Assembly (NCBI RefSeq): GCF_004010195.1
Contig: NC_057719.1
Location: forward strand, 25,993,641-26,057,640
Source of the DNA: Chiloscyllium plagiosum
Lineage: Eukaryota
Reading direction: 5' to 3'
Length of the DNA stretch: 64,000 bases
A program made the translations under genes and the position numbers. The notes beneath the pieces were generated by a model. The model saw nothing but the letters and a program-made list of their open reading frames with translations, was not told the origin of the DNA and made no database searches. Positions 1,066 to 63,965 of this stretch are shown in pieces (within the stretch, counting starts at the first letter, position 1; each line of letters starts with the position of its first letter).

Positions 1066-1345
1066 TGAGGTAAAAACAATGACTGCAGATGCGGGAAACC
1101 AGATTCTGGAGTAGAGTGGTGCTGGAAAAGCACAGCAGTTCAGGCAGCATCCAAGGAGCAGGAAACTCGACGTTTCGGGCAAAAGCCCTTCATTGGAGTA
1201 AAGCTCTCTATTGGAGTAAGCAAATTATTCTGCCTAATTTATTTTGTCCAAGTGTTTTACTGTTTCAGCCTTTACAAAATCCTACACAACGGATCTCGGT
1301 TTAAAACGAACTGCTGTGCTTTTCCAGCACCACTCTACTCCAGAA
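1066..1345 (-). mobile_element. PLE-derived fold-back insertion with captured local DNA
   Basis: PLE terminal repeat 1066-1191 with a truncated hammerhead (reverse complement atgaagggcttttgcccgaaacgtcga) and an inverted partial copy at 1308-1345. Flanked by the 12-bp duplication tctgcatttttc (1054-1065, 1346-1357). Confidence 0.8.
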
Positions 1346-2589
1346 TCTGCATTTTTCCATCTTATTCTGTATGTTGCTATGTTGAGGGCCCTTACCTTCC
1401 ACTTCCAAAGCTATAATGTTTAATTTGACTCTTGGTCTCATATAACCTTTCAAAATATTGATCTATTTCCAATTTCCAATATTTTCTTCACCATACTGTT
1501 GTTAGGCCTTTAAAAATGAGTTTATCATCAAATTATTCTGCCTAATTTATTTTGTCCAAGTGTTTTACTGTTTCAGCCTTTACAAAATCCTACACAATGG
1601 ATCTCGGTTTAAAACTAATGCACGAAGTTATAATGTGATCATATACAGAATATGATGGAGGATATGGATTTCTGAATTAGTTGCATTTGGGTAAATTAAT
1701 TGGTTTGAAGATATTGCAGCATCTCCCCAGAGTGCTAATCTTGTTCTGTTTGGTAGTTTGAATAGTTTTTTCTTCAAGTTAGTTAACGTTACTTAACTCA
1801 GACATTTGGACAACAGAATGTGATGTGAAAGTCTAAATTACTGTTGCAATACAAAGAAGGACAAGAGCCAAGAATACTTATCCTACATTTGCATTCTGAA
1901 ATTGGACCGAAAACAAATGAAAGAATTGCATTTCTGAAGCCTTTAAAGGATTATATTATGAAACAATACACAATCTTTGCCTTTCAATAAGAAAATAATG
2001 AAGTCTGCAGCATGGTGTGTTATAGACTGTAAAACAGAGATATAGTCTGTGATTTAAATGACTACATGCTTACTCCAATAGAGAGCTTTACTCCAATCCT
2101 GTAATGTGTTAATACAATGTGCAACCAGTTTAAACATATTGCTTATTATATTGCTTTTCTAACTCCCATCTGAGCTATAAGCTTTTTAAACCAACATTAC
2201 TGGTTGCATAAAAACCTACACGTATCAAACAAATAAAAAGTAAATGCTTCACATATACTTTATAATACAAAAATAAATGTCAGATATTATTAGATTTTCA
2301 TCAAGGTTTTTAATAGTTGACTATTTTATGCATGTAATAAAAATTGACAGCATGACATTGTAATGAGTTGAATGACATTCCAATTGCCAAATGATGCCTA
2401 CATGCACAACTTAGATAGAAATAGTACAAAGTCAGCAATCAACCCATTTTATTAATCATATAAATATTTCAGCTTTTTAATCAGATTAGTAGGTGAAGGT
2501 CTTTATGATTATTACTTATATCACCTTTCATAACTGTTTCTTTTCTGGTTCAATTTGTTACATAACAAAAGAAAATGTTACACTAGCTG

Positions 2590-4793
2590 CATATGCCAAC
2601 TGCAAACAGTATGGGTGGAAATTAGGAACAGCAAGGGAGCAGTCACCTCTTTAGGGGTTTACTACAGGCCCCCCAATAGCAGCAGGGAGATGGAAGAAAG
2701 CTTAGGTCGACAAATTTTGGAAAAGTGTGGACGTAGTAAGGTTGTTGTAATGGGTGACTTTAACTTTCCCAATATTGATTGGAACCTCCTTCAAGCAGAA
2801 GATTGAATGGAACTGTTTTTGTAAGGTGTGTTCAGGAGGATTTCCTAACTCAGTATGTTGACAGGCCAATGAGGGGAGAGGCCATTCTAGACTCACATTC
2901 TACATAGCTATGGAGAAGGAGAGGATTAGGCAAAACGGGAGGATATTTAATTGGGGAAGAGGAAACTATGATGCGATTAGACATGAGGTACGAAGCATGG
3001 ATTGGGAGCAATTGTTCCATGGTAAAGGCACTACAGACATGTGGAGACTGTTTAAGGAACAGTTGTTGCAAGTGATGAACAAATATGTCCCTCTGAGACA
3101 GGCAAGAAGGGGTAAGATAAAGGAACCTTGGATGACAAGGAGCTTCTCGTCAAAAGGAAAAGGTAGCTTACGTAAGGTGGAGGAAGCTAGGGTCATGCTC
3201 AGCTCTACAGGATTACAGGCAGGCAAGGAAGGAGCTTTAAAATGGTCTGAGGAGAGCCAGGAGGGGGCACGAGAAAGGCTTGGCAGAACGGATTAGGGAG
3301 AACACAAAGGCATTTTACACTTATGCGAGGAATAAGAGAATGGTCAAAGAAAGAGTAGGGCCGATCAGGGATAGCATAGGGAATTTGTGTGTGGAGTCTG
3401 AGAAGGTAGGGGAAGCCCTAAATGAGTTTTTTGCTTCTGTCTTTACGAAAGAAACGAACTTTGTAGTGAATGAAACCTTTGAAGAGCAGGTGTGCATGCT
3501 GGAATGGAGAGAGATAGAGGAAGCTAATGTGCTGAAAATTTTGTCAAGCCCGGACCAGATTTGTCCTCAGCTGCTTTGGGAAACGAGAAATGCAATTGCT
3601 TCGCCACTTGCGAAGATCTTTGCATCCTCGCTCTCCACTGGAGTCGTACCTGAGGACTGAAGAGAGGCAAATGTAATTCCTCTCTTCAAGAAAGGAAATA
3701 GGGAAATCCCCAGCAATTACAGACCAGTAAGTCTCACGCCTTCCTTCTGCAAGGTGTTAGAAAGGATTCTGAGGGATAGGATTTATGACCATCTGGAAGA
3801 GCATGACTTGATTAAATGNNNNNNNNNNNNNNNNNNNNNNNNNNNNNNNNNNNNNNNNNNNNNNNNNNNNNNNNNNNNNNNNNNNNNNNNNNNNNNNNNN
3901 NNNNNNNNNNNNNNNNNNNNNNNNNNNNNNNNNNNNNNNNNNNNNNNNNNNNNNNNNNNNNNNNNNNNNNNNNNNNNNNNNNNNNNNNNNNNNNNNNNNN
4001 NNNNNNNNNNNNNNNNNNNNNNNNNNNNNNNNNNNNNNNNNNNNNNNNNNNNNNNNNNNNNNNNNNNNNNNNNNNNNNNNNNNNNNNNNNNNNNNNNNNN
4101 NNNNNNNNNNNNNNNNNNNNNNNNNNNNNNNNNNNNNNNNNNNNNNNNNNNNNNNNNNNNNNNNNNNNNNNNNNNNNNNNNNNNNNNNNNNNNNNNNNNN
4201 NNNNNNNNNNNNNNNNNNNNNNNNNNNNNNNNNNNNNNNNNNNNNNNNNNNNNNNNNNNNNNNNNNNNNNNNNNNNNNNNNNNNNNNNNNNNNNNNNNNN
4301 NNNNNNNNNNNNNNNNNNNNNNNNNNNNNNNNNNNNNNNNNNNNNNNNNNNNNNNNNNNNNNNNNNNNNNNNNNNNNNNNNNNNNNNNNNNNNNNNNNNN
4401 NNNNNNNNNNNNNNNNNNNNNNNNNNNNNNNNNNNNNNNNNNNNNNNNNNNNNNNNNNNNNNNNNNNNNNNNNNNNNNNNNNNNNNNNNNNNNNNNNNNN
4501 NNNNNNNNNNNNNNNNNNNNNNNNNNNNNNNNNNNNNNNNNNNNNNNNNNNNNNNNNNNNNNNNNNNNNNNNNNNNNNNNNNNNNNNNNNNNNNNNNNNN
4601 NNNNNNNNNNNNNNNNNNNNNNNNNNGTTGCCAGCAGCAGTTGTGGAAGCAAGGTCATTGGGGACATTTAAGAGACTACTGGACATGCATATGGTCACAG
4701 AAATTTCAGGGTGCATACATGAGGATCAGTGGTCGGCACAACATCGTGAGCTGAAGGGCTTGTTCTGTGCTGTACTGTTCTATGTTCTATGTT
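2590..4793 (+). mobile_element. CR1-clade (HER1-like) LINE, 5'-truncated, degenerate ORF2
   Basis: APE endonuclease motifs (LGVYYRPPNS, VVVMGDFNFPNIDW), linker (EALNEFFASVFTKE) and RT N-terminus (NYRPVSLT...LERILRDRIYDHLE) broken by stops, frameshifts and internal deletions. 3' tail tctatgttctatgttc. An assembly gap lies inside. Confidence 0.92.
3819..4626. other. Assembly gap (N run)
   Basis: Run of N inside a CR1 LINE. Confidence 1.
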
Positions 4794-7020: not shown

Positions 7021-7819
7021 TTTTTTCTGCAGTAGTGCTGATATTCTTCAGCATCCACGTTTGTGTGTGTGCAGGTGCAAGATACAGTGAAAAACACCAA
7101 GTGAAAATAACTTTATTAACATTCCACCACCCATGTGGCCAACGAACCAGTGACAAGCAACGCCCAGAGCGAGCAATGCTAATGTGAAAGAGGTAAAGGG
7201 GAGGGTAGGGACTAAATCAAAACAGAGTTGGAAATAAAGCACTCCATTCCCCACAGTGTCTACCTCTCCCTAAAAAGGCTACTCCTGTTTTGTTTTTGTC
7301 AAAATTGAAGGGAGAGCCATGACAAACTACAGGGGGACATTGAAATAACTCTACAGAGGCCAGCATCCCATCACCAAGCCACCCTTTAGTTACAAGTGAA
7401 GAATCCTTGACACTGATCCAGATCCCTCAGAAACAGCTCGCAGAGTGAACAGGATGTCTGGCACTCCTTTTCTTTTAGTGTGTGTGCAGGTGTGTATACT
7501 CCTGTTTTTTTTTAGAAGAGTCCTTGTACACACACACACGCACACTGGTCCAGCTCCCTCAAGAGCCAGCTCTCAGAGTGAACAGAACCTCTGACCGTCC
7601 TTTTTTTTTCCCCCTTTTTACCCCCACACTACCACCTAACTGCGGCAGTGCTTATTTTTTCCCCAGCACCCATGGTGTGTGTGTGTAGGTGTAAGACACT
7701 GTGAAAGACACAAGGTGCACAAATTTTTATTCAATTTTCCATCACCAGGAAGAAAGAAATACCCGAGTGGCCTGTGACAAGCAGTACCCTTTACATCAAA
7801 GGGCAAACTGTCAGTCAGG

Positions 7820-8034
7820 AGAAAGTGAGGACTGCAGATGCTGGAGATCAGAGCTGAAAATGTGTTGCTGGAAAAGCGCAGCAAGTCAGGCAGCATCCAA
7901 GGTTCCTGAAGAAGGGCTCATGCCCAAAATGTCGATTCTCCTGCATTCCTGAAGAAGGGCTCATGCCCGAAACGTCGATTCTCCTGCTCCTTGGATGCTG
8001 CCTGACCTGCTGCGCTTTTCCAGCAACATATTTT
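7820..8034. mobile_element. PLE-derived fold-back insertion with tandem hammerhead motifs
   Basis: Inverted arms (about 7855-7902 vs about 7989-8035). 16-bp duplication caaactgtcagtcagg (7804-7819, 8035-8050). Confidence 0.85.
7945..7980 (+). ncRNA. Minimal hammerhead ribozyme motif (second of a tandem pair)
   Basis: attc-CTGAAGA-a-GGGC-tcat-GCCC-GAAA-CGTC-gatt. A decayed copy lies 43 nt upstream (core starts at 7906). Confidence 0.65.
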
Positions 8035-9082
8035 CAAACTGTCAGTCAGGCCTCCCTGATTCGACCAGATTAACAGCTCCAATCAAGGAGCTCATACTCT
8101 ATGAGGTCCAACCAGCTGACTTCATTACAATCACTACAGAAACCACTGTAAAATTGGACCTTTTTTACTTTAAACGTCCTTGAGCTGTCAATTACTACTT
8201 GAATTACATTGATTTCAATTGATTTGTGAGAATAATGAGTTAATGATTTTCAGAAGTAAAATATTACCTTTGTGCAAATTCTTTTCTTTTAAAAGTGATT
8301 GATTTTCATGTGGATCATAACACATGCACGGTAGTTCTCATGGATTTAATTGATCACCGACTTATTGCAGTCAGGAGATAGTTCAACAGTGCACCCTCTG
8401 GAGAAATACAGAATCTTGGACAGCACTATCTGGATTTCCATGGTATTCTGAACAGCTGGGGACTCTCAAAGTGGCTGACATGTTCAGTGGAACAATGACT
8501 GCAGAAAGTGGTAGTTTCATTACTATTATGCTAGCAATTGACTATTGAATCATCAAATTGGTCTTGAATCTACTATCTTCCAACTCAGAGGCGAGTACCA
8601 CAAAGCCATTCCAGCAATCAGATAAAAATAAACAATTTGAAGGTTTACATTGTTCCAATTCACTTACAGGAATGAGGTAGTGTCTGAAGGTTTGTCCATG
8701 TTCAAGAATATAACCATCACCATCAACTTCACTTCCTTCCCAATGTTTCTATCCTGTTTTCTTAACTAATATTGCCGAACCAAATCATTGACCATAAAGC
8801 TGACTTAGCAGCTGAGGTGTGGGTGCGAGCTGCCAATTCTCTATAAAAGTAGACAGGTTTGCGATTATAGTTTGAGATGATAAGGAGGCCTGAGTGAGAT
8901 GAGGAATGAGCTATTAACTTGGGAATATGTTGTGCAGAGGAGAAAGGAAGTGCTCATTTTATAGCTTTGGTTTCAGTAGCTCGTAAGCATTCAAAGATAT
9001 TAATTAGGTGAGCAGATAGATGAGGTTTAGCAAGTTTTAAAATTTTATCCCTCAAAATCAGAAGGACTATTACTATCAGAAT

Positions 9083-10820
9083 GTTGTGATTGCACTGGAG
9101 AGGGTGCAGAGGAGATTCACCAGGATATTGCTTAGGATGGAAAGTCCCAGTTATAAGGAGAGACTGAATAGGTTGGATTTGTTTCCCTTTGAGCAGAGAA
9201 GAATGAGGGGGAATCTGATTGAGATAAACAAATTTATGAGAGGCATAGGCAGGGTAGACAGTGAGAATCTTGCCTCCATGGCAGATATATCTAAGACCAG
9301 AGGGCATAAGGTTAAGATGAGGATTTACGGGAAATCTGAGGAGTCTAGCATGTTTCGAGAAGTTTTGTAGCTCAGATTGAAGTTCAGATGTAAGTTTGCT
9401 CGCTGAGCTGGAAGGTTCGTTTTCAAACGTCACCTGGGTAACGTAATCAGTGAGTCTCTGGTGAAGCACTGGTGTTATGAACACTTTCTATTTATGTGTT
9501 TAGGTTTCCTTGGGTTGATGATGTCATTTCCAATGGTGATGTCATTTCCTGTCCTTTTTCTCAAAGGGTGGTAAATAGGGTCCAAGTCAATGTGTTTGTT
9601 GATAGAGTTCCAGTTGAAATGCCATGCTTCTAGGAATTCTCATGTGTGTCTCATTTGGCTTGTCCTAGGATGGATGGGTTGTCCCAGTCAAAGTGGTGTC
9701 TTTCCTCATCTCTATGTAAGGATATTAGGTGATAGTGGGTCATGTCTTTTTATGGTTAGTTGATGTTCATGTATCCTGGTGGCTAGTTTTCTGCCTGTTT
9801 GTCCAATGTAGTGTTTGCTATAGTTCTTGCAAGGTATTTTGTAAATGACATTCATTTTGCTTGTTGTCTGTTTAGTGTCTTTTGAGTTTATTAGCTGTTG
9901 TTTTAGTGTGTTGGTGGGTTTGTGGGCTACCATGATGCCAAAAGGTCTGAGAAGTCTGGCAGTCATTTCTGAGATGCCTTTGATGTAGGGGAGAGTGGCT
10001 AGGGTTGCTTAATGCATTTTGTCTGCTTGTTTGGGTTTGTTGCTGAGGAATCAGTGGACTGTGGTCATTGGGTACCTGTTCTTTTCGACTACACTGCATA
10101 GGTGATTCTCCTCTGCTCTGCATTGTTCCTCTGTGCTGCAGTGTGTGGTGGCTCGTTGATAATAATGTTCTAATGCAGCTTCGTTTGTGGATGTTGGGAT
10201 GATTGCTTCTGTAGTTCAGTATGTGGTCCGTTTGTGTTGTTTTCCTGTAGACACTGGTTTGAAGTTCCCCATTGGCTGCTTGCTCTACTGTGACATCTAG
10301 GAATGGCAGTTTGTTGTTGTTTTCCTCCTCTTCAGTGAATTTTATGTGGGTAAGGATATTATTGATGGTCTTGAAGATTTTCTCTAAATTGTTACATTGA
10401 AACAGGAAATGACATCACCACAGGAAATGACATCACCAATCCAAGGAAACCTAAACAAATAAATAGAAAGCGAGTCATAACACCAGTGCTTCACTGGAGG
10501 CTCAATGATGATATTACCTAGTATGGTGGTGAAATGTCTGAAAACGAACCTTCCAGCTCAGCAAGCAAACTTACATCCAGAATGTGAGGAAATTCTTTCT
10601 GCCCAGAGGGTGGTAGAAACATGGAACATGCTGTCTGTGAGGGTGGTAGAGACAGAAACCCTCGTAACATTTAAGAAGAATCTTCATAAGCACTTAAAAT
10701 GCAAAGACATGAAAGTGTATGGACCAACTACAGGCAAATGGTGATTCATGTAGTTTGGAGTTTGTTGGTCAACACAGACATGGTGGCCTGAAGGGCCTTT
10801 TTTATGCTATATGACTCTAA
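9083..10820 (+). mobile_element. CR1 LINE 3' fragment split by a Penelope insertion
   Basis: LERVQRRFTR...YKERLNRLDLF...RRMRGNLIE at 9086-9330. The CR1 continues at 10581 (SAQRVVETWNML...TFKKNLHKHL) and ends in the tail tatgactcta. Confidence 0.85.
9350..10580 (-). mobile_element. Penelope-like retroelement fragment (GIY-YIG endonuclease) with inverted terminal repeat
   Basis: ORF 9712-9966 has NVIYKIPC...HYIGQTGRKLATRIHEH (GIY-YIG of PLEs). About 9385-9553 is an inverted repeat of about 10402-10580. A degenerate hammerhead lies at about 10501-10541. Approximate target duplication aatctgagga/aatgtgagga (9333, 10581). Confidence 0.88.
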
Positions 10821-12094: not shown

Positions 12095-13090
12095 GGTTAA
12101 CAATTAAACAGTTCACTGGAGGAGTAGGCTCCACAAATATCCCCCAACTCAACTACAGGGGAGCCCTGTGCAAAAGATAGGGCTGAAGTATTTCCATCTT
12201 CAGCCAAAATGCTGAGTGGATGATCCATTGTGGGCTCCTCCTGAGATGCCCAGCAGCACAGATAGCAGTCCTCAAGCAATTTGATTCACTCCACATGATG
12301 TTAAGAGACAGCTGAAGGCATTGGATATTGCAAAGGCTATGGGCCTTCTGGAAATTTCACTTAAGATATGCTCCAGAATTAGAGATTGGCCTCTAACCAA
12401 ATTATTTCAGTAAAGCTACAACACTGGCATCTACTTGGCAATCTGAAAAGTTGTCCAGATATGTCTTGTCCACAAACACAAATCAATTTTTGAGAAGATT
12501 TGTAACCCGGGTTGAGGTTCTGGACCTCAGCGAGCAAACCTACATCTAACACAAAGCAAATCCAATCTAGCCAAATGCTGCTCTAATAACGTCCTGACAT
12601 CATCAGTGAAGTGTTAGAAGGGGTCACATCAATACTATTAACAGTACTTGCAAAGAATTAGCCTGCTTATCAATGTTCAGTTTGGATTCCACCAGGCACA
12701 GTCAGGTTCTGACCACATTACGGCCTTGGTCTAAACATGGTGATGAGAGTGCTGAACTCCAGAGGTGAGGTAACAGTGACTGCCCTTGGGAGCATGTGAC
12801 CAAGTGTGGGATCATGGAGCCACATAATACTGGAGTTAATTGAAAAAGCAACTCTCTGCTGGTTGGAGTCATACCAAGCGCAAAGGAAGATGGTTATTGG
12901 AGGCCAGTCATCTCAGCCCAAGGGCACTACTGAAGGAGTTCGTCGAGGTAGTGTCCCAGAACCAAACATTTTCAGCAGCTTCGTTAATAACTTACCCTCC
13001 ATCATAAGATCAGAAGTGGGGATGTTCACTGATGTTTGTATAATTTTCAGCAATACTGATGATTTCCCAGATACTTGAACAGTCTGGATC
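12095..13090 (+). mobile_element. Degenerate LINE RT region (second CR1-like family) with small PLE fragment at about 12488-12548
   Basis: WLESYQAQRKMV...GVRRGSVPEPNIFSSFVNNLPSIIRSEVGMFTD is a decayed RT domain. It is homologous to 24000-25330. Confidence 0.75.
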
Positions 13091-14118
13091 CAAATAAAGT
13101 TCAGGATTAGAAAGGTCATTATGAATGACAATGATCGGCTGCTTGGTTTCTTCTGCTCCTATTCTTTCCTTGTTTTGCTCTTCAATGAGGGATAATCTAT
13201 TCTCTTACAAGCTTGTTTCACTTTTATCGTGAATTGATATTCATTTTTGAGTTAGGCCAATTCAAAACCTTTCATGAACTTATATTTTCATCCACTTTAG
13301 TTTTTTTTTGCTTTTGCTGTTCTCAGAGGGGCTAATCCCTACAAGACAAATCTACAATCCTGACAAATATTCAAATATGCTAGTGACTCTATTCCTTCAT
13401 TAATTTACTTTTAGCATCAATCAGAACAGGTAATCCATAGGACAAGTGAACATCTCCTATTCTAAGAAATCTGTTTTTGCAATCATTAGCCTTTGTTTAA
13501 CACATCAACAATATCCTGTGATAGGTGATTAATTTACTTTAAATAATCACATTTTTGAATACCACTTCTAACACTGAAGCAAATGCCTAACATAAATCAG
13601 AAACCATGCAGAACAAATCAAATTTTCAAACAATACATTCACGAATTGACAAATTCCTAATTGTTCCAGTAGTTAACTAATCAATTTCCTCAGTTCTTCT
13701 CTGAACTCTATTACTGTCAACAACAGTATAAAATGTATGGGTTGGGACTTGCCCAAGTTTTTTGACCTACTTCAAGTTGATATTGATTACTGCAATTGAT
13801 TTCTCCCAAGACAGAAAAAGCTCAAAATGGCTCCCTATATTTTCTGATTCCTTTACAGAATGATTTTAATCAGGTGCAATTCTGCAGCAGCAAGTCACTG
13901 AAAACAATTCCCTCTAAAAACAAATGTTTCTTCCAAAGTAAAGTAATATTCTCATGATACTGGAGTATGGAATAATTATATCCAACCAGAAATCATTCTT
14001 AAAGCTCTGACTTTTCAAAGAGATGGAAGATTCACTATAAACTCATATATGTTCCTAAGTACTGGATCAGTGGTGCTGGAAGAGCACAGCAATTCAGGCA
14101 GCATCCGAGGACAGGCAA

Positions 14119-14154
14119 AATCGACGTTTCGGGCAAAAGCCCTTCATCAGGAAA
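14119..14154 (-). ncRNA. Minimal hammerhead ribozyme motif
   Basis: Reverse complement reads ttc-CTGATGA-a-GGGC-tttt-GCCC-GAAA-CGTC-gatt. Stem I is weak. Confidence 0.65.
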
Positions 14155-14157
14155 GGG

Positions 14158-14188
14158 CTGATGAAGGGCTTTTGCCCGAAACGTCGAT
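14158..14188 (+). ncRNA. Minimal hammerhead ribozyme core (5' strand of stem I lost at the inversion junction)
   Basis: CTGATGA-a-GGGC-tttt-GCCC-GAAA-CGTC. Confidence 0.55.
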
Positions 14189-15231
14189 TTTGCCTGTCCT
14201 CGGATGCTGCCTGAATTGCTGTGCTCTTCCAGCACCACTGATCCAGAATCTGGTTTCCAGCATCTGCAGTCATTGTTTTTACCTATGTTCCTAAGTACAT
14301 TGCTTGCACATATCGTCAAAAACACAATTTGCTTGTAACAGTTAAAATGAACTTACACACTTTAAAAGGTACATTTTGGTCAGTGAATCAGCCCTGGAAA
14401 ATTGCGCAGAATGTGATAAAATAGAGTAAAAGGTTTCTGCGTGTTGAATTGGAGGTACGGTTGGAGGTGATGGAAAGGAGGAGGGGTGTACTGAATTTTC
14501 AGAGGGGCAGCAGATCCATTAAGATCAGTGAGACCATTAAAATCAATAGCGGGGGTTCTCACTCACCTAAGTAATTAATATCAGGGGAATGCATCTTCAA
14601 ATAAGATAAACCATAAATTCTACCCGTTCTCTAACACTGCTGAAATTTCCACACCCCTAGAATGCACATCCCAGTAATAGCTATGAAGGAGAAATAAACT
14701 CTAATGTCCATATGCTTTATCTCACATGAACACACTTTTACACATCTGCAGTTTGTGCAATTGGATAGCTATTCAACCATGCCAACTACATCATAAACCA
14801 GAATCTGGCTGGGAAATCTTTTCTTACCAGGAAAGGAGGGTTGAGCTGTAATATAGAGAGATCAGTAATCCCACTGCTGGGACTAAAAGCAATACCCAAA
14901 CTTGCTTGAGAAGGCAGGAGGAAACTGGGAGTCATTTTAATTTTGACAGTTAATGAAGAGGTTGCTGCTGGAACTCCTGTCAATTTGAGAACAGTGATTC
15001 ACTTCTCAGAGATGGCAACCCATACAGACAGCTGGCTAGCTCTGCCATGGGCCTTGAGGGCCATTTTCCCAGCAGTGGTGATCCAGCTGTGGAGGACCCT
15101 CGTAAAGTTGGTGGCCCACCCAAAAGTCCCTCACAGTTACTTTGAGATTAGGTTTTCAAATACTACCCATTTCCAGAGGTATCACTGAATGAACCACCAT
15201 TCAAACAGTGCCACATCCATTGCATTCAGTC

Positions 15232-15964
15232 AAAAGTGACATGACACCAAGTTATCGTCCAACAGGTTCATTTGAAATCACAAGCTTTTGGAGCGCTGCT
15301 CCTTTATCAGGTGACTTCATAAACTCCGAAAGCTTATGATTTCAAATAAATCTGTTGAACTATAGCATGGTCTCGTGTCACTTCTGACTTTGTCCCTCCC
15401 AGTCCAACACAGCCACCTCCACATCATGGCTACCATCAACACTACAAACTGTTGGCTCAAAGTGGAGACGATCTCCAAGAAGATCACAGCCATCGACATA
15501 GACATCATGTTTCTGCAGAGATACAAGAAAGCAGACGAGATCCCTGACAGGAATACAGATCACAAATCCACTCAAGTCAATCGACAACACAGACTACGCT
15601 GAAACTCTGCTGTTGCTCTTCTCACACACTCCTCAACCATCTTGTACACCAGCTCTATAGCAGACACCTCAACCTTGAAATCAAGACAGAGTCCCTATTC
15701 TCAGTTTGCACTCAAGACATAGCAGACCAGCTACAAGACACTGCCAAGCAGACGAGGCAACGGAATTATGCCACCTACGTACACACCAAGAATGGGAAAC
15801 CTGAGAAACTTGGAAAAAAAAGACTTGGGAAAAAAAAGACTTCACCTGACAAAGGAGCAGGGATCCGAAAGCTTGTGATTTCAAATCAACCTGTTGGACT
15901 ATAATCTGGCATCGTGTGACTTCAGACTTGTTCACCCCAGTCTAACATCGGCACCTCCACATCA
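15232..15964 (+). mobile_element. PLE fragment (AGCT-hammerhead family): inverted repeat, terminal repeat, probable ORF start, second terminal repeat
   Basis: Three copies of the ...ccgaaagcttgtgatttcaaataaacctgttggactata... repeat (one inverted). The second copy runs into ATG at 15426 (MATINTTNCWLKVETISKKITAIDIDIMFLQRYKKADEIP), which I take to be the PLE ORF N-terminus. Confidence 0.7.
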
Positions 15965-17074: not shown

Positions 17075-17625
17075 TGAAGTAGAGCAGAAGGAGGCCATTC
17101 AGGCCAATGAGTCGGCTCCTCCATTCAGTGAGATCATTGTTCATCTGATAATCCTCAATTCCACTTCCCTGCCTTTCCCATAACCTTCGATACTCTTGCT
17201 GATTAAAACTCTGTCAACCTCAGCCTACTGAACAACCCAGCCTCTACAGCCCTCTGTGGTAAAGGAAGCCAGATTCACAACCCTCTGAGAAAAGAAATCA
17301 ATCCTCACCCCTGTCTACCTGGTTGATCTTTTATTCTGAGATGATGCCATCTGGTCTTCAGCTCTTCCTTTAGGAGAAAGAAGCTTTCTGCATCCATCTC
17401 AAGTCTGCTAAGAATCTTGTGTGTTTCAGTAAGGTTGTCTCTTATTCGAGGAGAAAGTGAGGACTGCAGATGCTGGAGATCAGAGCTGAAAAATGTGTTG
17501 CTGGAAAAGCACAGCAGGTCAGGCAGCATCCAAGGAGCAGGAGAATCGACGTTTCGGGCATAAGCCCTTCTCTTATTCTTCAAAGCTCCAATGAGTAGAA
17601 GTCCAACCTACACAACTTCTCCTTC
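17075..17625 (-). mobile_element. CR1 3' fragment
   Basis: Minus strand RDNLTETHKILSRL...KTRWHHLRI plus a typical CR1 3' UTR. Interrupted by a PLE fragment. Confidence 0.7.
17448..17570 (-). mobile_element. Short PLE terminal-repeat insertion
   Basis: 10-bp duplication tctcttattc (17438-17447, 17569-17578). Truncated within the hammerhead core. Confidence 0.85.
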
Positions 17626-19212: not shown

Positions 19213-19790
19213 GTGATGGTCTAATGGGATTATAGTAAAGCCATTAATCCAGAGATGAAAGTGTGTTGCTGGAAAAGCGCAGCAGGTCAGGCAGCATCCA
19301 AGGAACAGGAGAATCGACGTTTCGGGCATAAGCCCTTCTTCAAGAATCTCACCACCCATTAATCCAGAGACTCAGCTAACGTTCTGGAGACCTGAGTTCA
19401 AATCCTACCTCAGCAGATGGTGGAATTTGAATTCAATAGAAAATTTAGGAGTCAGCTGATTGAGACTTTATTTTCCCTCTTCTTCCCTAACGCTTGACTT
19501 CCTGTCACTCTGTCTAACTCAGCTTTTATAAAGTTGATGACCCAGCCTCCACTACTCACTGGCAAAACAAAATTTAATCAACACTGTTGGATTGTAGGGA
19601 AAAACCCTTGTGGTTCACTAATGTCCTTTAGAAAAGGTAATCTGCTGTTCTTACCTGGTCTGATCTACATATGAGTCCAGACACACAGCAATTCGGTTGG
19701 CTCTTGATTGCCCTTTGGTTAATTAGGAGTGGGCAATAAATATTAGTCTAGCTAACAAGACCCACATCCTTTGAACAAAAATTAAGAAAA
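19213..19790 (+). mobile_element. tRNA-derived SINE (43703 family) with nested PLE fragment 19256-19350
   Basis: Aligns to 43703-44048. The PLE insert is flanked by the 15-bp duplication ccattaatccagaga (19241-19255, 19356-19370). Confidence 0.8.
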
Positions 19791-21813: not shown

Positions 21814-22572
21814 TACGTTGCAAGTACCATAAGCTTCCTAAGATATTGTTGACGAGGAAATCATCCAATGAAATATAATTAAGCATAGGTTTTCTGTTGT
21901 TTTGATAGGGATCATAAATGCTAGCTTATGGCATGTCGAAGCCAAAATAGTTTAGATTCATTTTACTTAAGCTATCACGATTTCATTAAAGGATTTGAAA
22001 TATAGGATATCTCACAAAGAACTATTAGATAGCTGCTATACTTCCACCTGGTAAAGAGTTGTCAGTAACTCCTTCTGTACACTTCTAATCACACGTATTT
22101 GAATCCTGGAACGAAAATTCCTCTCAAAGACCAGCTCAACACATGAATTACCTGCTGTCTGGAGAAGACATTGAGATGTTCTGGGAAACTGCAGTGCAGA
22201 TAGATAAATTACCATTTTACACAGCCAGCTTTGATCCCTTCAGTGTCATTGCTGTCAATCGAGACCACTGCCATTTCTTCTAAATTTAAATAAAACTTGC
22301 AAAGTTGTGAGGCACCCTGAACATTTTTGTTTCATTGCAGCAGCCACAGAATCCCTCCTCAGCCAAGTGATAGCATCTTCATGGAATCAAATGGCGAATA
22401 ATTGAGTGCTTGTCCATTTTCCATTCTTCAAACTACCAAAATGAACTTCCAAAGAAGAAATAAAGTATAACTTCTTAAGTATTTCTTCTCCGCTTGAATT
22501 CCGGGTACTTCAAATATTTTTAATTTAACTGAAGAACTAATTTCTTCAGTTTAGAATCAAAAACAGAATTGC

Positions 22573-46145: not shown

Positions 46146-46465
46146 GGGTAGCATGGTGGCTTAGTGGTTAGCACTGCAACCTCACAGTGTCAGGGAAACG
46201 GGTTCGAAACCAGCCTCGGGTGACTGTCTGTGTGAAGTTTGCACATTCTCCCTGTGTCTGCGTGGGTTTCCTCCGGGTGCTCTGGTTTCCTCCCACAGTC
46301 CAAAGGTATGCAGGTCAGGTGGATTGGCCATACTAAATTACCCATAATGTTAGGTGCATTGGTCAGAGGGAACTGGGTCTGGGTGGGTTACTCTTCGGAG
46401 GGTCAGTGTGCACTTGTTAGGCTAAATGGCCTGTTTCCACACTGTAAGGAATCTAATCTAGTCTA
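46146..46465 (+). mobile_element. HE1-like V-SINE
   Basis: Same head, V-domain and tail as the other HE1-like copies. Confidence 0.9.
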
Positions 46466-49480: not shown

Positions 49481-49668
49481 CTTATCTGTCAGTATCTAGA
49501 ACAGATTCACTCGAACTTGAATTGCGGCTACCTGGATTGACCTGGGGAAGATGCAGCCTGAAAATTATGTTGAGTCACTTATTAATCCTTTTAGACTGGT
49601 GCTCCAACAGCCATCATCTGAATCAAGGCTGTTAAATGGTCAATGGAACAGACTATTTCAGGTAGGAG

Positions 49669-49866
49669 CTGAAAATGTGTTGCTGGAAAAGCGTAGCAGG
49701 TCAGGCAGCATCCAAGGAGCAGGAGAAAATTCGGGCATAAGCACTTCTTCACGCTTATGCCCGAAACGTCGATTCTCCTGTTCCTTGGATGCTGCCTGAC
49801 CTGCTGCGCTTTTCCAGCAACACATTTTCAGCTCTGATCTCCAGCATCTGCAGTCCTCACTTTCTC
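49669..49866. mobile_element. PLE-derived fold-back insertion
   Basis: Inverted arms meet within the hammerhead region. 12-bp duplication ttcaggtaggag (49657-49668, 49875-49886). Confidence 0.85.
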
Positions 49867-50043: not shown

Positions 50044-50726
50044 CACAGGAGTCGCAGGTAGCTAGGATAGTGAAGAAGGCGTTTGGTATGCTTTCCTTTA
50101 TTGGTCAGAGTTGTGAGTACAGGAGTTGGGAGGTTATGTTGCAGCTGTACAGGACATTGGTTAGGCCACTGTTGGAATATTGTGTGCAATTCTGGTCTCC
50201 TTTCTAATGGAAAGATGTTGTGAAATTTGAAAAGAGTTCAGAAAAGATTTACAAGGATGTTGCCAGGGTTGGAGGATTTGAGCTATAGGAAGAGGCTGAA
50301 TAGGCTGGGGCTGTTTTCCCTGGAGCGCCAAGGCTGAGGGGTGACCTTATAGAGGTTTACAAAATTATGAGGGGCATGGATAGGATAAATAGACAAAGTC
50401 TTTTCCCTGGGGTTGGGGAGTCCAGAACTAGAGGGCATAGGTTTAGGGTGAGAGGGGAAAGATATAAAAGAGACCTAAGGGGCAACTTTTTCATGCAGAG
50501 GATGGTATGTGTATGGAATGAGCTGCCAGAGGAAGTGATGGAGGCTGGTACAATTGCAACATTTAAGAGGCATTTGGATGGGTTTATGAATAGGAAGGGT
50601 TTGGAGGGATATGGGCCGGGTGTTGGCGGGTGGGACTAGATCGGGTTGGGATATCTGGTCAGCATGGACGGGTTGGACCGAAGAGTCTGTTTCCATGCTG
50701 TACATCTCTATGACTCTATGACTCTA
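50044..50726 (+). mobile_element. Young 5'-truncated CR1/HER1-type LINE
   Basis: YRSWEVMLQLYRTLVRPLLEYCVQFWSP and RTRGHRFRVRG...VWNELPEEV...FKRHLD; tail (ctatgact)n. Confidence 0.95.
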
Positions 50727-51170: not shown

Positions 51171-51931
51171 CAGAAAGTGAGGACTGCAGATGCTAGAGAG
51201 TCAGAGTCAAAAAGTATAGCACTGGAAAAACACGGCAGGTCAGGCAGTATCCGAGGAGCAGAAGAGTCGATATTTTGGGCATAGGCCTTTCATCAGGAAG
51301 GGGGCTGAGAGACAAATACAAGGGTGAGGGTGGGGCTGGGGGTAAGACAGCTGGGATGGCGATAGGAGAATGCAGATGAGATAGGTCAGTGGGGAGGGTG
51401 ATTTGATGGGGTGGGGGGTGTACCTAATGAGGGAGTCACAGAGGGAATAGTCTCTGCGGAATGCAGATGGAGATGGGGAGGGAAATATATCTCTGACCGT
51501 ACACTTCCCTCCTCACCTCCATCCAAAGCCCCAAAGGATGTTTTTACAGCCGGAAGAGCTTTTCATGCACATCCACTCACCTCAACTGTCATGTCCATTG
51601 CTCTCGATGTGGTCTCCCCTACATTGGGGAGACAGGACGTCAACTTGTGGAGTGTTTCAGGGAACATCTCTAGGATACATGCAGCAAATGACCTCACTGC
51701 CCTGTGCCTGATCACTTCAAATCCCCCTCCCAGTCCACCACGAACCTCCTCCACCGCCAAATCCAGGCCACCCAACATCTGGCAGAAGAACATCTCATCT
51801 TCTGCCTTGGGACCTTTCAACCACACAGCATCAATGTCAACCTCAGCAGTTTCCAAATCTTCCCTTCCCCACTTCATCCCAGCCTCGGATACTGCCTGAC
51901 CTGCTGTGCTTTTCCAACACCACACTCTTCA
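51171..51931. mobile_element. PLE insertion: inverted 3' end plus forward GIY-YIG fragment
   Basis: Plus-strand HCSRCGLPYIGETGRQLVECFREHL at about 51595-51670. Inverted terminal repeat at 51171-51300. 15-bp duplication with one mismatch (51156-51170, 51932-51946). Confidence 0.85.
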
Positions 51932-53491: not shown

Positions 53492-53826
53492 GGGGTGGCA
53501 TGGTGGCTCACTGGTAAGCACTGCTGCCTCACAATGTCAGGGACCCGGGTTGATTCCACCCTCCAGCGACTGCCTGTGTGGAGTTTCCATATCTGCCTGG
53601 GTTTCCTTCAGGTGCTCTGGTTTCTTCCCACAGTCCAAAGATGTGCAGGTTAGGTGGATTGGCCATGCTAAATTGCCATAGTGTTCAGGGATGTGCAGGC
53701 TAGGTGGGTTAGCCACGGGGAATTATAGGGTAGGGGCATGGATCTGGATGGGATGCTCTTTGGAAGGTTGGTGTGGACTAGTTGGGCCAAATGGCCTGTT
53801 TGCACATTGTTAGGATTCTATGATTC
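53492..53826 (+). mobile_element. HE1-like V-SINE
   Basis: Head ggtggcatggtggctcactgg, V-domain, tail ggattctatgattc. Confidence 0.85.
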
Positions 53827-55081
53827 TCGTACGAATAGCTTCTGTATATAAGCATTCGGAAATTATTCAATTTCTTCACCCTTTTCTGCTATAAGCCTGT
53901 GAATTTTTGCCTGCCTTCAAAAGGAAACACCTAACTTCCTCTGGAGACTTCAGCAGATGCTGCAGCTGAGCCCAGCGGCTCAGTCTGTGGGCGATTCAGA
54001 TGTGAACATGTGCTCTCTCGCTCCACAGCCCAGGAATAGACAGCCAGTGGACCTCTTCATCCTGACAGCTTCTTCCAGCCGAGTGCTCAGGCCATGTGTT
54101 TTCAAATCATCTGCTTTCTCTACTGGTTTCTTATTTATATTGTTCAATTTTTGAATAGCTTCACCTCACCCAAATCTCTGAGTGATTATGCATGAGAATG
54201 CTAATTAATCCTTCCAGTCTTTCCCTCATTTTCTTGATGCCCCTCTTTGTCACAGTACTGCTTGAAGTGGAAAATGACATGGAGTATCTTGGAAGGTGCA
54301 CTGCTCTGAAATTCCTCAATTTCTATTCTACAGAAGCAAGATGCTATAATTACAAGGGGTGGAGTGCGGGGTTGGGATATGGACTGCTTGCTCCATTGGA
54401 GGGGACATCAACCAGTTTTAATTCCCACATGCAATGTTACAGAAGATTGACTTGAATTTATTTGGGAATTAAAATTGACAAAGGTGTACAGTAGGCTGCT
54501 GATGGCACCTTGCCCAATTTATAATATCAGAAATTGAGATTAGCCCTCTTAATCCTAATAATTTGTCTAGTCTCCATGCTGTTACATTTTGTCTTATACT
54601 AAACAATTGAAATTTTGTTTACAAAACCTCCTGTGACATTGAATTTGATGAAAACAATCTGCATCCCCTTTACCTATTCAATTAGTTGCATCTTCAAACA
54701 CAGAAATGTTTGACAAATATGACTTGCCTTTAAAAAAGTCAGCCCTCATGATCCTTGATTGTTCAACTGAACATTCAGTAAATTGAAAGCACACACAAAC
54801 AATAATCTGTACACTAGCAAATATGTCACTAAAGAACCAAGCATGTCATCATTTAGAGACAGGAAAACAAAAACAATAAAAGGATGGAAAAGTAATTGAA
54901 ATTATTATCAATACATTCCCTCCATTTTCAATGGGCAACAAACCTTTACCATTCAATTGGCCTTTCATTTGGTAAACGTTTGAATAGTAAGGGCAAAACT
55001 AATGAGCAGAGCCCTGTTGAAGTGCTTGGGTAGGGGTGAGCAGAGACTCCCAGCCACATCAGCAATACCGTTAGATAGTAT

Positions 55082-55300
55082 CCATGATTTGGAGATGCCG
55101 GTGTTGGACTGGGGTGTACAAAGTTGAAAATCACACAGCACCAGATCATAGTCCAACAAGTTTAATTGGAAGCACACTAGCTTTCGGAGCGACGCTCCTT
55201 CATCAGGTGATATCACCTGATGAAGGAGCATCACTCTGAAAGCTAGCGTGCTTCCAATTAAACCTGTTGGACTATAACCTGGTGCTGTGTGATTTTTAAT
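55082..55300. mobile_element. PLE-derived head-to-head element (AGCT-hammerhead family)
   Basis: Inverted arms centred on ggtgatatcacc. 12-bp duplication gttagatagtat (55070-55081, 55301-55312). Confidence 0.88.
55175..55209 (-). ncRNA. Minimal type I hammerhead ribozyme, best-preserved copy
   Basis: CAC-CTGATGA-a-GGAGC-gtc-GCTCC-GAAA-GCTA-GTG: stem I CAC/GTG, stem II GGAGC/GCTCC, palindromic stem III AGCT, predicted cleavage after CUA. Confidence 0.75.
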
Positions 55301-55655: not shown

Positions 55656-55741
55656 TGAAGGGCTTTTGCCCGAAACGTCGATTTTCCTGCTCCTTGGATG
55701 CTGCCTGACCTGCTGTGCTTTTCCAGCACCACTCTAATCTA
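55656..55741 (+). mobile_element. Short PLE terminal-repeat fragment
   Basis: tgaagggcttttgcccgaaacgtcgattttcctgctcc...ccagcaccactctaatct. Confidence 0.8.
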
Positions 55742-56106: not shown

Positions 56107-56491
56107 TTATCCAAAACAATAATATCCATCATCAAAGTCATCTTTGGATTCTTTATTCATAGATTCACTGTTAAGTGAATCTGTTGTTACACATTCGTCT
56201 GAGAAGGGATCTAGGTCGGAAGGTGTGCAGTCACCTGGCAAGTCGTCAGCCAGCGTGTCCAGGTAACTTCCCACTGAGATTTCATCAAGCCCATCACTGC
56301 CATCTTGCAGGCTATTCCAGCTGCCTTGGAGTGAAATGCTCTGGCTTTCTGCCAAGCTATAGAGACTGCTCGTCAAGCTGCTCCCCCTGCTCGCCATGTT
56401 GCCTTTCTCCTCTATTATCCACTTGATCGACTCAATACCTTCATTGATGGACAACAACTGATGTATCAATTGCCCTGAGGCGAGCCGTAAT
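56107..56491 (-). CDS. LURAP1L: Last coding exon of leucine rich adaptor protein 1-like (LURAP1L); 5' end apparently frameshifted; first exon not found in window
   Basis: Minus-strand ORF reads LIHQLLSINEGIESIKWIIEEKGNMASRGSSLTSSLYSLAESQSISLQGSWNSLQDGSDGLDEISVGSYLDTLADDLPGDCTPSDLDPFSD...DDGYYCFG*. This matches my recollection of the LURAP1L C-terminus (RQLLVINESIESIKWMIEEK...DGSDGLDGISVGSYLDTLADD...YYCFG). The expected upstream motif (ARLRAID) lies in another frame at 56485-56465. The ORF-finder start at 56550 is probably intronic. Confidence 0.88.
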
Positions 56492-56882
56492 CTGAACAGT
56501 GCAACGGCACCTTTTTTCTCTCTCACTGTTCCTTTTCCTTCCACCCTCATTGCTCAATCCAGGGACACTTTCACTCAAGAGCTCCTACACCCAGACAGAG
56601 AGATGTTAGACCAGCATTGAACCTTGGATCTTCTTGGTCAGCCTGTCTCAGCTACACACTGAATAAATGTACAGATTCCTGAAGAGAACCCAAGCATCCA
56701 CAATGAAATACACAGCTGCCATGTTCCAGAAGCAATTTTTAATTTTAATTTTGTTGCAATCCTGTTGGGGTAATGCTATTTTCTTTACCCCAGTTACATT
56801 TATATAGGCTATAAAAGAACCAAACAATGACAATATGCACCGGTAAACACTTTAATGAAATTTTTGGTTTCTACAAATAAGT

Positions 56883-57270: not shown

Positions 57271-57734
57271 AAAGCTTCCAGTCAAATGCTATTTCAGCAA
57301 ATATCTGTAAAACCCCTGGCTATCAAATCCACCCACAACCCAGCTTGGCATGCACATTTGCAGATATCAAGTGAAGACAGACTTGCCTTCAAGGCTCTCA
57401 TTATGGAAAGGTTTCCCGAATCTATAGAGCTGTGCCATAGGAAGGTCCAGATCATCTGTCATTGTTTCAAATATGTTATCATTTCATGAGATTCAGGCAA
57501 TAAAAAGGATCTGAATCTTTGTGTCATTGTGGGTATAACAGGATAACTGATGATGTAACAGAAGGGTTTGGACTAAGACACTTGATTAGGTGCATGTGAA
57601 ATGTGAACTACAGTGATTAATTTCCAGGTTCCAATTCATGGGTAGTCTTCTCTAAACCAATCAAAGCTTTTGGAGCTGCAAAACTTTTGCTCACTAAAAA
57701 TATATTTGAGTGGATTTTTTCTGAAACAGCCATA

Positions 57735-58080
57735 AAGTGAGAAATCATACAACACCAGGTTATAGTCCAACAGGTTTATTTGAAATTAGAAACTTACGGA
57801 ATGTAGCCCCTTCATCAGGTGAAGTGAGAGGGAAGCACACAGAACACAGAATTTATGGGCAGAGAGAGCAAGGGCAGAGAGATCAAAAGATCATACAAAT
57901 GGTGTCAGTGTTGAATAATAAATCTCTGCAGGTGACCAGGAATGTTAGTGTGTGTGAGTGTCAACAGCTGAATAACAAGTGAAGGGGTGACCTATAATCC
58001 AATTAAATGAGGCAGAGAGATAATTACGAAAAATTAAAAGTACGGTGGTGCCGACGACAGACCACATGACTGGAAAAACA
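57735..58080 (-). mobile_element. PLE 3' fragment (AGCT family)
   Basis: aacaccaggttatagtccaacaggtttatttgaaat...ccttcatcaggtga matches the repeats at 15240 and 55130. Confidence 0.7.
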
Positions 58081-59519: not shown

Positions 59520-59960
59520 GAACCATAAAAAATGACACAGCACAGAAGCAGGCCATTTGGCCCATCGTGTCCATGCCAGCCCAAAGAAACCTAGATGCCC
59601 TTCAATCCCATCTTCCTGCACATAAACCCTGCTGAGAAACTGCAGGAAGGAAAGGGCTTATGCCCGAAACGTCGATTCTCCTGTTCCCTGGATGCTGTCT
59701 GACCTGCTGCGCTTTTCCAGCAACACATTTCCAGCTCTGATCTCCAGCATCTGCAGACCTCACTTTCTCCTCCAGGAGCCTTCTCTGTTCCAAGAAAAAC
59801 AACCTCAACTTCCCCAATTTCTCCTCATGGCAGGAATTCTCCAGCCCTGGCAACATTTTAGTAAATCATCTCTGCACTCTCTCCAGAGCAATTATGTCCT
59901 TTAATGTGGTGACCAATACTGCACACAACACTCCAGTTATAATCTCACCAGTGGCCTATA
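59520..59960 (-). mobile_element. CR1 3' fragment with nested PLE terminal repeat (about 59649-59771, +)
   Basis: MLPGLENSCHEEKLGKLRLFFLEQRRL on the minus strand. The insert reads aagggcttatgcccgaaacgtcg...cactttctcct. Confidence 0.8.
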
Positions 59961-62595: not shown

Positions 62596-63844
62596 AAACC
62601 CAACTTTTGCCATAATGTATTGATTACGCTTTGTCTGGATGCAACTCCTCCACACTCCACAAAGCCACCCCTGGCCCTAATTAACTACCTTGCCTCAGGC
62701 AAGGAAAGTGACTGCTTTTCCAACAGGAAAACAAGAGCGGACTACCTTCTGGGTGGAGGTGGGAAAGGGCCTCCACTTACCCCCATCTGGTAGCTTTCAG
62801 CTACACCCCTTCCCTTGCATAAAACCACCCCCTCACCCCATAACCCCATCCCAAGATCTTTTAAAACAAGCTCACTCACGTTCTCAGCTTCCTAGCTGTG
62901 CAGGCCAGGCCTCCGGTGACAATCTCCAGTTCTCAGGGACTCATGATACACTGGAGAAGGCTGTCAGTCAGCCTTCTTACTGGTGGGGACAGGGAGTTAG
63001 TCACTTCTAAAGACACCCAGCACCACAACATCCAGAGCACTAAGTGAGGGCTATTGTTTGACCAGAGCTTGAAAATCAAGAACTATGACTCAGTCCAACA
63101 AAAGTCCCTTGCTGGTGCTTTCAATTCACCATTAAGTTCAGAATGTAAAGGTGCAAGAAAGGATCCTGAACTCATTCACTCTATATTTCTTGCAATCGCT
63201 ACATACATGACGAGCATGTGGATATGTCTAAAGGAAAGAGATGGAAATGATCTTAGCCAAATTATAAACAGACATGAGAGGTAGCTCTTGCTCAGCTTGT
63301 TTTTGACAGCAATACATTTTAGAGAATTAGTTCAATTTGAGCAGGACAAGGATTTTGTTCCATCTGAAAAAGAATGAATTCTGAATGAATAAGGAACAAT
63401 TGGATGAAAGAGACATTTCATTTTCAGCAGGAGAGGACTCATCCTTCCCAACAAAGAGGTTATGTTACAAAGGAGCTGGCTGTTTCACAGCTGAGAGCTT
63501 GTTAATTTATTCTACACTAGATTGTTGGCCTGTGGTGTGGTAGTCATCTCAAGAAGGTCTCATACCTTTAGAGAACTCAATCGTCTTCTGAATCTTTGCT
63601 CCAGGTTTGGGTGGAAACCACTGCATCAGCAAAACAAAAACTTGCTGCATAAATACAACCTGAGGTCATTGAAAAAAAACATTTTGGACAGACTTATGGT
63701 CATGAGTCCCTGAGACAGGGGGCTTAACCTAACAAAAATCTTTCAAAGTGGATCCATTTAATAGCGTCAAATAAGTTTGCAACTGAACATAAAATATTCC
63801 TTATTAACTTGTTTTTCTGAGTTGATATTAGACACAACCATGGT

Positions 63845-63965
63845 GAGGTAAAAACAATGACTGCAGATGCTGGAAACCAGATTCTGGATTAGTGGTGCTG
63901 GAAGAGCACAGCAGTTCAGGCAGCATCCAAGGAGCTTCGAAATCGACGTTTCAGGCAAAAGCCCT
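63845..63965 (-). mobile_element. Short PLE terminal-repeat insertion
   Basis: 12-bp duplication cacaaccatggt (63833-63844, 63966-63977). Truncated at hammerhead stem II. Confidence 0.85.

Follow-up and report, generated by a model that had tools for sequence, protein, structure and literature searches.

The 64,000-nt stretch of the Chiloscyllium plagiosum genome analyzed here (contig NC_057719.1 of assembly GCF_004010195.1, positions 25,993,641–26,057,640; hereafter the window) is strewn with short repeats that carry a motif resembling a minimal type I hammerhead ribozyme, many of them as head-to-head fold-backs, and it raises the question of whether these termini are mobile units in their own right or by-products of a larger element. 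A preliminary description of the window, made without database searches, had derived them from Penelope-like elements (PLEs) and proposed that the ribozyme-bearing terminus of 100–250 bp behaves as a non-autonomous, retrozyme-like unit. Our analysis upholds the first claim and speaks against the second: the repeats are almost certainly PLE debris in the form of short copies inserted by autonomous Penelope-like retroelements, and strong-stop cDNAs, begun at internal start sites and run off the 5′ end of the RNA, are on balance the likely origin of many of the short copies, which we call stubs. The strong-stop reading is the part that we did not find in print in the open-access literature, whereas the elements themselves are ordinary PLE debris in a published layout.

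Events in the window were called by aligning references cut from longer genomic copies, and the rest of the genome (3.56 Gb) was represented by 120 arbitrarily picked 10-kb stretches, taken from large scaffolds only and amounting to 1.149 Mb excluding N (the sample). Positions within an element are numbered in the sense of its open reading frame (ORF), with position 0 at the predicted hammerhead cleavage nucleotide, and breakpoints carry an alignment error of a few nt.

The repeats derive from autonomous Penelope-like elements

Reference alignment gave 18 insertion events in three families, A (with subfamilies A1, A2 and A3), B and C, and a more sensitive scan added a 19th that the preliminary description had missed, a 60-bp family C fold-back at ~12490–12550. 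An inverted-repeat scan together with the alignment placed 10 of the 18 in the head-to-head class, and these include every one of the ten named earlier. Target site duplications (TSDs) of at least 10 bp, counted with up to one mismatch, were found at 13 of the 18 events, with that at 9350 borderline and none convincing at 33600, 55656, 57734 and 59652. The earlier estimates of about 18 insertions in three families, most with TSDs of 10–16 bp, are therefore borne out.

In the sample, 309 termini resolved into 232 events, 77 of them inverted pairs, and head-to-head pairs outnumbered tail-to-tail pairs by 70 to 4. Short copies were the rule, with 100 of 155 solo events measuring 150 bp or less and 57 of 77 pairs 300 bp or less (median pair length 211 bp). 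The window holds 288 events/Mb against 202 events/Mb in the sample (~1.4-fold), a density matched or exceeded by 7.6% of random six-locus groups. The insertions are dense, as had been stated, but the window is typical of the genome and not special; scaled from the large-scaffold sample, the genome-wide total would be several hundred thousand events.

The link to PLEs comes from coding sequence. The preliminary description had called for a search for an intact PLE ORF with the same terminus, and our genome search with the A1 coding piece returned open frames of up to 893 codons. At 90–97% identity, the A1 terminus closes ORFs of 674–754 open codons that carry reverse transcriptase (RT) and GIY-YIG domains (loci L134, L135 and L138); in L134 and L135, RVT_1 scored above gathering, GIY-YIG gave E-values of 2.5–2.9e-4, and the A1 tail follows. 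The B and C termini likewise come after GIY-YIG-type coding DNA (B by translation only; C with GIY-YIG E-values of 3e-4 to 3e-3). The A1 and B termini also run into the ORF start, the pseudo-long terminal repeat (pLTR) arrangement, which in the window is seen at 15324–15964. Among named proteins, those most closely related to the A1 ORF come from sharks and rays.

Within the window itself, the three PLE coding remnants reported earlier at 9712, ~51600 and 32801 proved real, and there is a fourth. The GIY-YIG remnant at 9730–9918 (− strand) gave a Pfam E-value of 2.9e-4, slightly below the gathering score; ~51560–51840 has a GIY-YIG-type translation, its DNA being 77–80% identical to other copies and its 38-aa piece lacking a Pfam match; the RT C-terminal piece at 32801–32897 is 92% identical to the A1 ORF; and the fourth remnant is a family B ORF N-terminus at ~15425–15840. 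A CX2-5CxxC linker finger was seen by eye in A, is degenerate in B and was not seen in C. This finger is a clade criterion separating Neptune/Nematis from Penelope/Poseidon (PMC8557442), and the linker motif suggests that A and B are of Neptune/Nematis type and C of Penelope/Poseidon type.

Termini of further PLE-like families, hammerhead-bearing or related, were also observed, at L172 and L194 (in the family B 3′ untranslated region, UTR), L247:9508–9548 and L057:61–124, one of them nested in inverted orientation within the family B 3′ UTR. PLE termini often lie inside termini of different PLE families (L057:2097–3305, L146:4023–5211 and L139). In the 893-codon open PLE frame (L131:2883–5561, − strand), a short ORF segment repeated in tandem makes up the N-terminal part, which may reflect a local duplication or an assembly artefact.

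Two classes of 3′ ends and the origin of the fold-backs

Copy lengths are not random, as the preliminary description had presumed: 3′ ends fall into two classes and 5′ ends cluster. In family A, the 3′ ends form two groups in the sample, one near +48..+71 and the other near +87..+100. A long tail is combined with a short one in 40 of 47 A pairs. TSDs of at least 11 bp flank 26 of 39 young A pairs, against 0 of 222 control positions, with a mode of ~15 bp. The layout described for PLEs, an inverted 5′-truncated copy with head-to-head junctions, a tail of 30–40 bp on one arm and a TSD (PMC8557442, PMC3846280), is thus present here, one-sided tail included.

We consider that the fold-backs probably had two primers. 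RT would start at one of two internal sites, ~60 or 96 nt beyond the cleavage position, on an uncleaved RNA primed near its 5′ end. Head-to-head pairs would result when both nicked target strands serve as primers, each at a start site of its own. Four features of the pairs bear on this. The tails of both arms point towards the target. Which arm extends further 5′ varies (37 versus 27 of 67 pairs). The junctions are varied, with overlap in 16, blunt joining in 4, 1–20 extra nt in 31 and more in 16 (n = 67). In 4 of 67 pairs, and likewise at 12490–12550, a long arm consisting of tail only abuts the short site. Taken together, they fit two opposite-strand primers at two start sites better than a single strand folding back on itself.

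The latter scheme, in which the cDNA or an antisense template folds and copies itself and endonuclease resolution sets the one-sided tail, is an unlikely competitor. It has been proposed for rotifer Penelope (PMC3846280) and in PMC8557442, and it would suit the finding that both arms come from one subfamily in 45 of 58 pairs, against an expected 35%, and are often near-identical. DNA-templated steps are also seen in the events at 30182, where unique DNA is duplicated in both arms, and at 1066, where the filler comes from nearby DNA. Self-priming accounts less well for junctions that are mostly not neat hairpins, for the freedom of either arm to be the longer, and for tail-only arms that abut the short site, and the PAc protein has been shown in vitro to use two internal sites when it extends the two nicked strands (PMC11167929). 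Arm-versus-arm identity does not separate the two models.

The 5′ ends cluster downstream of a TATA-like box

Among young A1/A2 termini (n = 96, after exclusion of 13 beside gaps or locus edges), 35 5′ ends fall within the 9 nt from −36 to −28, or 3.9 per nt compared with 0.16–0.55 on either side. An exact walk on intact A1 cores, targeted loci included, placed 50 of 93 ends at −36..−28, 6 at −60..−37 and 37 beyond. The A1/A2 cluster has its mode at −32 to −30, with a TATA-like box at −60 to −66. In B1, TATAA lies mostly at −66 to −68 (a clear TATAAAT) and the 5′-end mode is −36/−35 (9/33); in C, a CATAAA box lies at −81/−82 and 2 of 26 5′ ends are at −53. The offset between cluster and ribozyme therefore differs by family, the stop lying 5′ of the core by 4 nt (A), ~8 nt (B1) and possibly 20 nt (C), whereas the offset between cluster and box (~30 nt) is constant. 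At the A1 cluster the sequence reads TCATTCC, which is initiator-like. A downstream promoter element was also sought, and the match by eye was poor.

These positions, taken from sequence, lead us to regard the cluster as the likely 5′ end of the RNA, and hence the transcription start, with somewhat better than even confidence, and we give the same weight to the reading of many stubs as strong-stop cDNAs. RT would leave the template at a predicted Pol II start that lies immediately 5′ of the hammerhead. From the RNA 5′ end it could instead jump to a downstream position, which would give partial tandems, or the 3′ UTR and ORF of longer copies.

Copies that contain the ORF start are informative here. 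Among 29 distinct A1 ORF-start loci, which are the top matches to one query rather than a random sample, 12 extend as far as the hammerhead edge, every one of them stopping at −37..−28; in a comparison set of 3′ termini, 24 pass and 35 stop (Fisher p = 0.006). Downstream second pieces in the A1 ORF-start loci begin at −35..−30 in 12 of 21 cases, as though RT had copied to the RNA end, switched to a downstream position and copied to the end once more. A G stands 5′ of the junction in 27 of 64 cases against 16.8 expected, and in 13 of 34 against 7.2 when fold-back junctions are left aside (p = 0.017, post hoc), which hints weakly at a copied cap. The short copies begin downstream of the TATA-like box and so lack it, and they are predicted to be dead on arrival.

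A splice acceptor was considered as the cause of the cluster and set aside, no AG preceding the cluster in the A or B references; in Drosophila virilis Penelope, an intron ends at helix I (PMC4209133). The D. virilis element has been described as having a TATA-less internal promoter with its start well upstream of the ribozyme (PMC2377424). None of the RNA runs on record contains the window sequence. In one polyA single-cell run aligned to an A1 locus, 2245 reads from both strands fell on the tails and coverage over the ORF start was 0–10×; it showed no pile-up of starts or ends, in a library type that cannot reveal a start or cleavage site, and its sister run yielded no aligned reads. Mismatches in such reads are indistinguishable from variation among copies and give no ground for claiming RNA editing.

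Several observations weigh against the interpretation set out so far. For B1, a prediction fixed beforehand was half borne out: in the replication (20 loci, from 20 of 40 matches), 6 reach the hammerhead edge, of which 2 stop at the predicted −37/−36 and 4 continue into the 3′ UTR, and older B loci are also mixed. The predicted position was right and the frequency was not; the stop is not absolute, and true tandems with an upstream 3′ UTR exist, as promoter-bearing masters must. The A1/A2 boxes (TTTAT) are weak TATA matches, and the pattern is absent from one A2 reference and from the B2 reference. Family C copies are mostly long, with 17 of 26 ends beyond −180, and so scarcely test the strong-stop model. 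Only 10 of 72 solo termini have a TSD of at least 10 bp, so some of them belong to larger events not resolved here. Finally, the assembly, in which many long copies hold N gaps, yielded no full-length copy whose two pLTRs are both intact.

The same cluster could arise if RT, copying a longer read-through RNA, stalled or was released at the 5′ edge of the hammerhead, owing to structure or a bound protein, so that the stubs would be ordinary 5′ truncations with a hotspot. We regard this, too, as unlikely. The family A cluster does sit at the 5′ strand of stem I, and RT passes the point in ~40% of 3′ termini and, among the six B1 ORF-start copies that are informative, in four. A stall does not readily explain why the stop precedes the core by a different distance in each family, each time ~30 nt after a TATA-like box, nor the 12 stops out of 12 in A1 ORF-start copies; moreover, a structure should halt RT at its 3′ foot, before it has been copied.

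The hammerhead motif and the proposed retrozyme-like unit

A strict descriptor of minimal type I hammerheads, which demands stem II and the 15.2–16.2 pair but not stem I, matched 6 times in the window and never in 30 shuffles, and 59 times in the 1.15-Mb sample compared with 0–1 in three shuffles. All 59 matches have the extra base before stem II, and they divide into 43 with CG and 16 with GC. All have G10.1 as well, paired by eye with C in 46 cases and with U in 13. Since MAFFT put the families out of register when 20 of the hammerheads were aligned, pairs were counted in anchored columns. The motif is real, then, but most window copies have lost part of it, the core being intact in 7 of 28 termini, and on both strands at 14062 and 55081 only. 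The Rfam check that had been suggested returned no hammerhead family for the window even at E ≤ 10, and only hairpin-driven microRNA look-alikes below gathering.

Stem I covaries across families. Pair 1 is C-G in A and B and A-U in C; pair 2 is U-A in A, A-U in B and C-G in C; pair 3 is U-U in A1 and A2, U-A in A1b and C, and C-G in B. This points to selection in active lineages. Stem I amounts to 2 bp plus a U-U mismatch in A1/A2, to 4 bp in A1b and to 3–5 bp in B, which agrees with the earlier remark that it is weak in the family with ACGT at the palindrome. Selection on single copies was also considered and rejected: A1 core sites outside CpG vary less than the tail (2.6% versus 6.5%), a difference confounded by differences among masters, and the CpG core site G12 decays in single copies (17–31%).

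By folding, stem II is predicted to form in single arms. In fold-backs the hairpin is predicted to be 45–49 kcal/mol more stable than the form with the hammerhead open, with a stem II probability of 0. Fold-back RNA is thereby predicted to bury the ribozyme, contrary to the earlier suggestion that fold-backs offer a working ribozyme on either strand, whereas the long double-stranded hairpins suggested alongside it do appear in the predictions. Stub hammerheads are predicted to be passengers.

The retrozyme-like unit of the preliminary description, a terminus of 100–250 bp that is transcribed, cleaves itself and is mobilised in trans from short masters (SINE-like, after short interspersed elements), is improbable in light of these data. 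It would accommodate the very high copy number and near-uniform lengths given above, animal retrozymes stem from pLTRs (bioRxiv 10.64898/2026.07.22.740005), and Chlamydomonas has non-autonomous PLE derivatives (PMC8557442). No head-to-tail arrays were found, the window having only a 43-bp partial duplication and the 309 sample termini only 9 same-strand neighbours, none an array. Only 6 of 201 family A termini have 5′ ends at the cleavage site (−2..+3). Short copies show no variants of their own, with no column reaching p < 0.05 in a low-power comparison of 33 short and 14 long A1 copies, and G12 decays as other CpG sites do. Stubs lack the TATA-like box, after which the short copies start, fold-backs are predicted to bury the motif, and minimal hammerheads need a tandem partner (PMC4209133).

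That the palindromes are artefacts of gapped short-read assembly is next to excluded: N gaps do lie in many long copies, and contigs from four other DNA runs span the flanks but break at the repeats (with no empty allele among the contig joints listed), yet the arms differ in sequence and length, TSDs distinguish the pairs from control positions, and head-to-head pairs far outnumber tail-to-tail pairs.

Insertions and other features of the window

The window insertions are as follows (strand in brackets where a single one applies).

1066–1345: A2 head-to-head; − arm with long tail to ~1193, short + arm from 1308; 12-bp TSD.
7819–8036: A1 head-to-head; − arm with long tail, +13..+96; + arm with a 43-bp partial tandem and an intact hammerhead core at 7949–7976; 16-bp TSD.
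9350–10582: family C (Poseidon-like) inverted insertion; − arm with RT thumb and the GIY-YIG remnant at 9730–9918, + arm 10405–10582; cores decayed; TSD weak.
12490–12550: family C micro fold-back; − arm tail-only, +38..+70, + arm +19..~+44; the pieces abut at the short-tail site.
14062–14284: A2 perfect fold-back; 89-nt arms, 100% complementary; cores at 14158–14185 (+, stem I 5′ strand missing) and 14150–14123 (−); 15-bp TSD.
15228–15964: family B partial tandem; inverted short arm 15228–15314, then hammerhead remnant, tail and ORF N-terminus 15324–15840, then second terminus 15842–15964; 13-bp TSD with one mismatch.
17449–17571 (−): A1 solo stub, −23..+96; 10-bp TSD.
19250–19347 (−): A1 solo stub, −31..+66; TSD ~15–17 bp.
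30182–31164: A2 head-to-head; 269-bp filler; near-intact core at 30831–30858 (+); 31–32-bp TSD.
31968–32897: A1 inverted insertion spanning an N gap; − arm with intact core at 32060–32033, + arm cut by the assembly gap; RT C-terminal piece at 32801–32897 (−); TSD ~14–18 bp.
33600–33650 (−): A3 tail fragment without hammerhead or TSD.
36771–36897 (+): A1 solo stub, −30..+96; core mutated at U16.1; TSD 14–18 bp.
49666–49866: A1 head-to-head; short arm −26..+64, long arm −17..+96; cores incomplete; TSD 12–15 bp.
51172–51929: A3 inverted insertion; 3′ UTR, linker piece and GIY-YIG remnant at ~51513–51882 (+); 15-bp TSD with one mismatch.
55081–55299: family B fold-back; intact cores at 55206–55178 (−) and 55217–55245 (+); 12-bp TSD.
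55656–55741 (+): A2 solo stub, −23..+63; no TSD found.
57734–58080 (−): family B terminus with 300 bp of 3′ UTR; no TSD found.
59652–59769 (+): A1 solo stub, −21..+96; TSD weak.
63846–63965 (−): A2 solo stub, −20..+98; TSD 12–14 bp.

Two of these events contain additional DNA. The filler of the event at 1066 (1192–1310) was copied from nearby host DNA, at 2067–2097 in inverted orientation (100% identity) and 1529–1618 in direct orientation (98%). Both arms of the event at 30182 run ~200–230 bp beyond the tail into DNA present at these two genome sites only, and the extensions could have arisen by 3′ transduction, the source having since been lost, or by fold-back synthesis on a DNA template.

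Outside the PLE insertions, a LURAP-family coding exon lies at 56170–56499 on the − strand (Pfam PF14854, E-value 2.3e-38), so that the window is probably inside or beside a LURAP-family gene and some of the insertions may be intronic. Remnants of long interspersed elements (LINEs) are numerous (2650–3818 and 50050–50700, among others), as are copies of a ~300-bp SINE-like repeat (29500–29840, 40210–40490, 46150–46450 and 53500–53820); these are probably CR1-type and a tRNA-derived shark SINE, respectively. A 180-bp tandem duplication of 98–99% identity lies within a LINE remnant at 37640–38000, and a direct duplication of 218 bp (89% identity) links 22560–22776 and 23413–23629 in otherwise unique DNA.

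Relation to known systems and implications

In retroelements with long terminal repeats (LTRs), minus-strand strong-stop DNA arises by priming near the RNA 5′ end and run-off, followed by a jump, and in L1 twin priming two primers on opposite target strands give rise to inversions. What we propose differs from both in that nicked target DNA would prime internal RNA sites and the run-off product itself would integrate.

The closest published parallel to the layout is Pen2a of the rotifer Adineta vaga (PMC3846280; scheme in PMC8557442), which shares head-to-head termini, a one-arm tail, a TSD and captured spacers, and the A. vaga pLTR has TATA- and Inr-like motifs as here (PMC3846280). In C. plagiosum, by contrast, mostly the terminus alone is inserted, at ~200 events/Mb, and the TSD mode of ~15 bp exceeds the 8–10 bp of Pen2a; a sharp, family-specific 5′ cluster, as found here, does not feature in those parts of the Pen2a account that we could draw on (PMC3846280).

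For priming, the nearest comparison is the PAc protein of Anolis Poseidon, which in vitro works on RNA that is not cleaved and begins the extension of either target strand at two internal sites, these sites defining the tail (PMC11167929). PAc shares with the elements described here two classes of 3′ ends ~35 nt apart, downstream of the hammerhead, and the finding that ends here do not lie at the cleavage site fits an uncleaved RNA. PAc belongs to Poseidon, whereas A and B are putatively of Neptune/Nematis type by linker motif, and the ORF, which in PAc starts in stem II, starts here at or after the end of the long tail (B ~+95, A1 ~+135). Discussion of run-off at the RNA 5′ end or of template jumps is absent from the portions of the PAc paper available to us (PMC11167929), and a search of the open-access literature on Penelope strong-stop, twin priming, template jump, cryo-EM and shark hammerheads found no paper stating the run-off model.

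Vertebrate genomes are known to contain thousands of dispersed minimal hammerheads, including opposite-strand pairs 100–700 bp apart, and the minimal PLE hammerheads have low activity and need dimers (PMC4209133). The motif described here shares with these metazoan type I hammerheads the common core, the extra base before stem II, G10.1 and the palindromic 15.2–16.2 positions, as well as the lack of stem III and the short stem I (PMC4209133); it departs from them in the stem I of A1/A2, reduced to two pairs and a mismatch. Animal non-LTR retrozymes are likewise short, non-coding, hammerhead-bearing and derived from PLE pLTRs. Retrozymes are tandem units cut between two ribozymes (PMC7761336, bioRxiv 10.64898/2026.07.22.740005), arranged head-to-tail and processed to circles, whereas the copies described here occur singly or head-to-head, and their ends bear no relation to the cleavage site.

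The literature treats the way in which PLEs acquire pseudo-LTRs, partial tandems and inverted ends as an open question (PMC8557442, PMC11167929), and the C. plagiosum genome, with its young subfamilies and near-complete ORFs, supplies insertion intermediates in very large natural numbers. The strong-stop model predicts transcription starts at −31 and −36 and run-off products of ~95 and 127 nt. The long hairpins predicted for fold-backs, where they lie in introns, could supply double-stranded RNA, and the stubs, if they are strong-stop products, would hint at how PLEs rebuild their end repeats.

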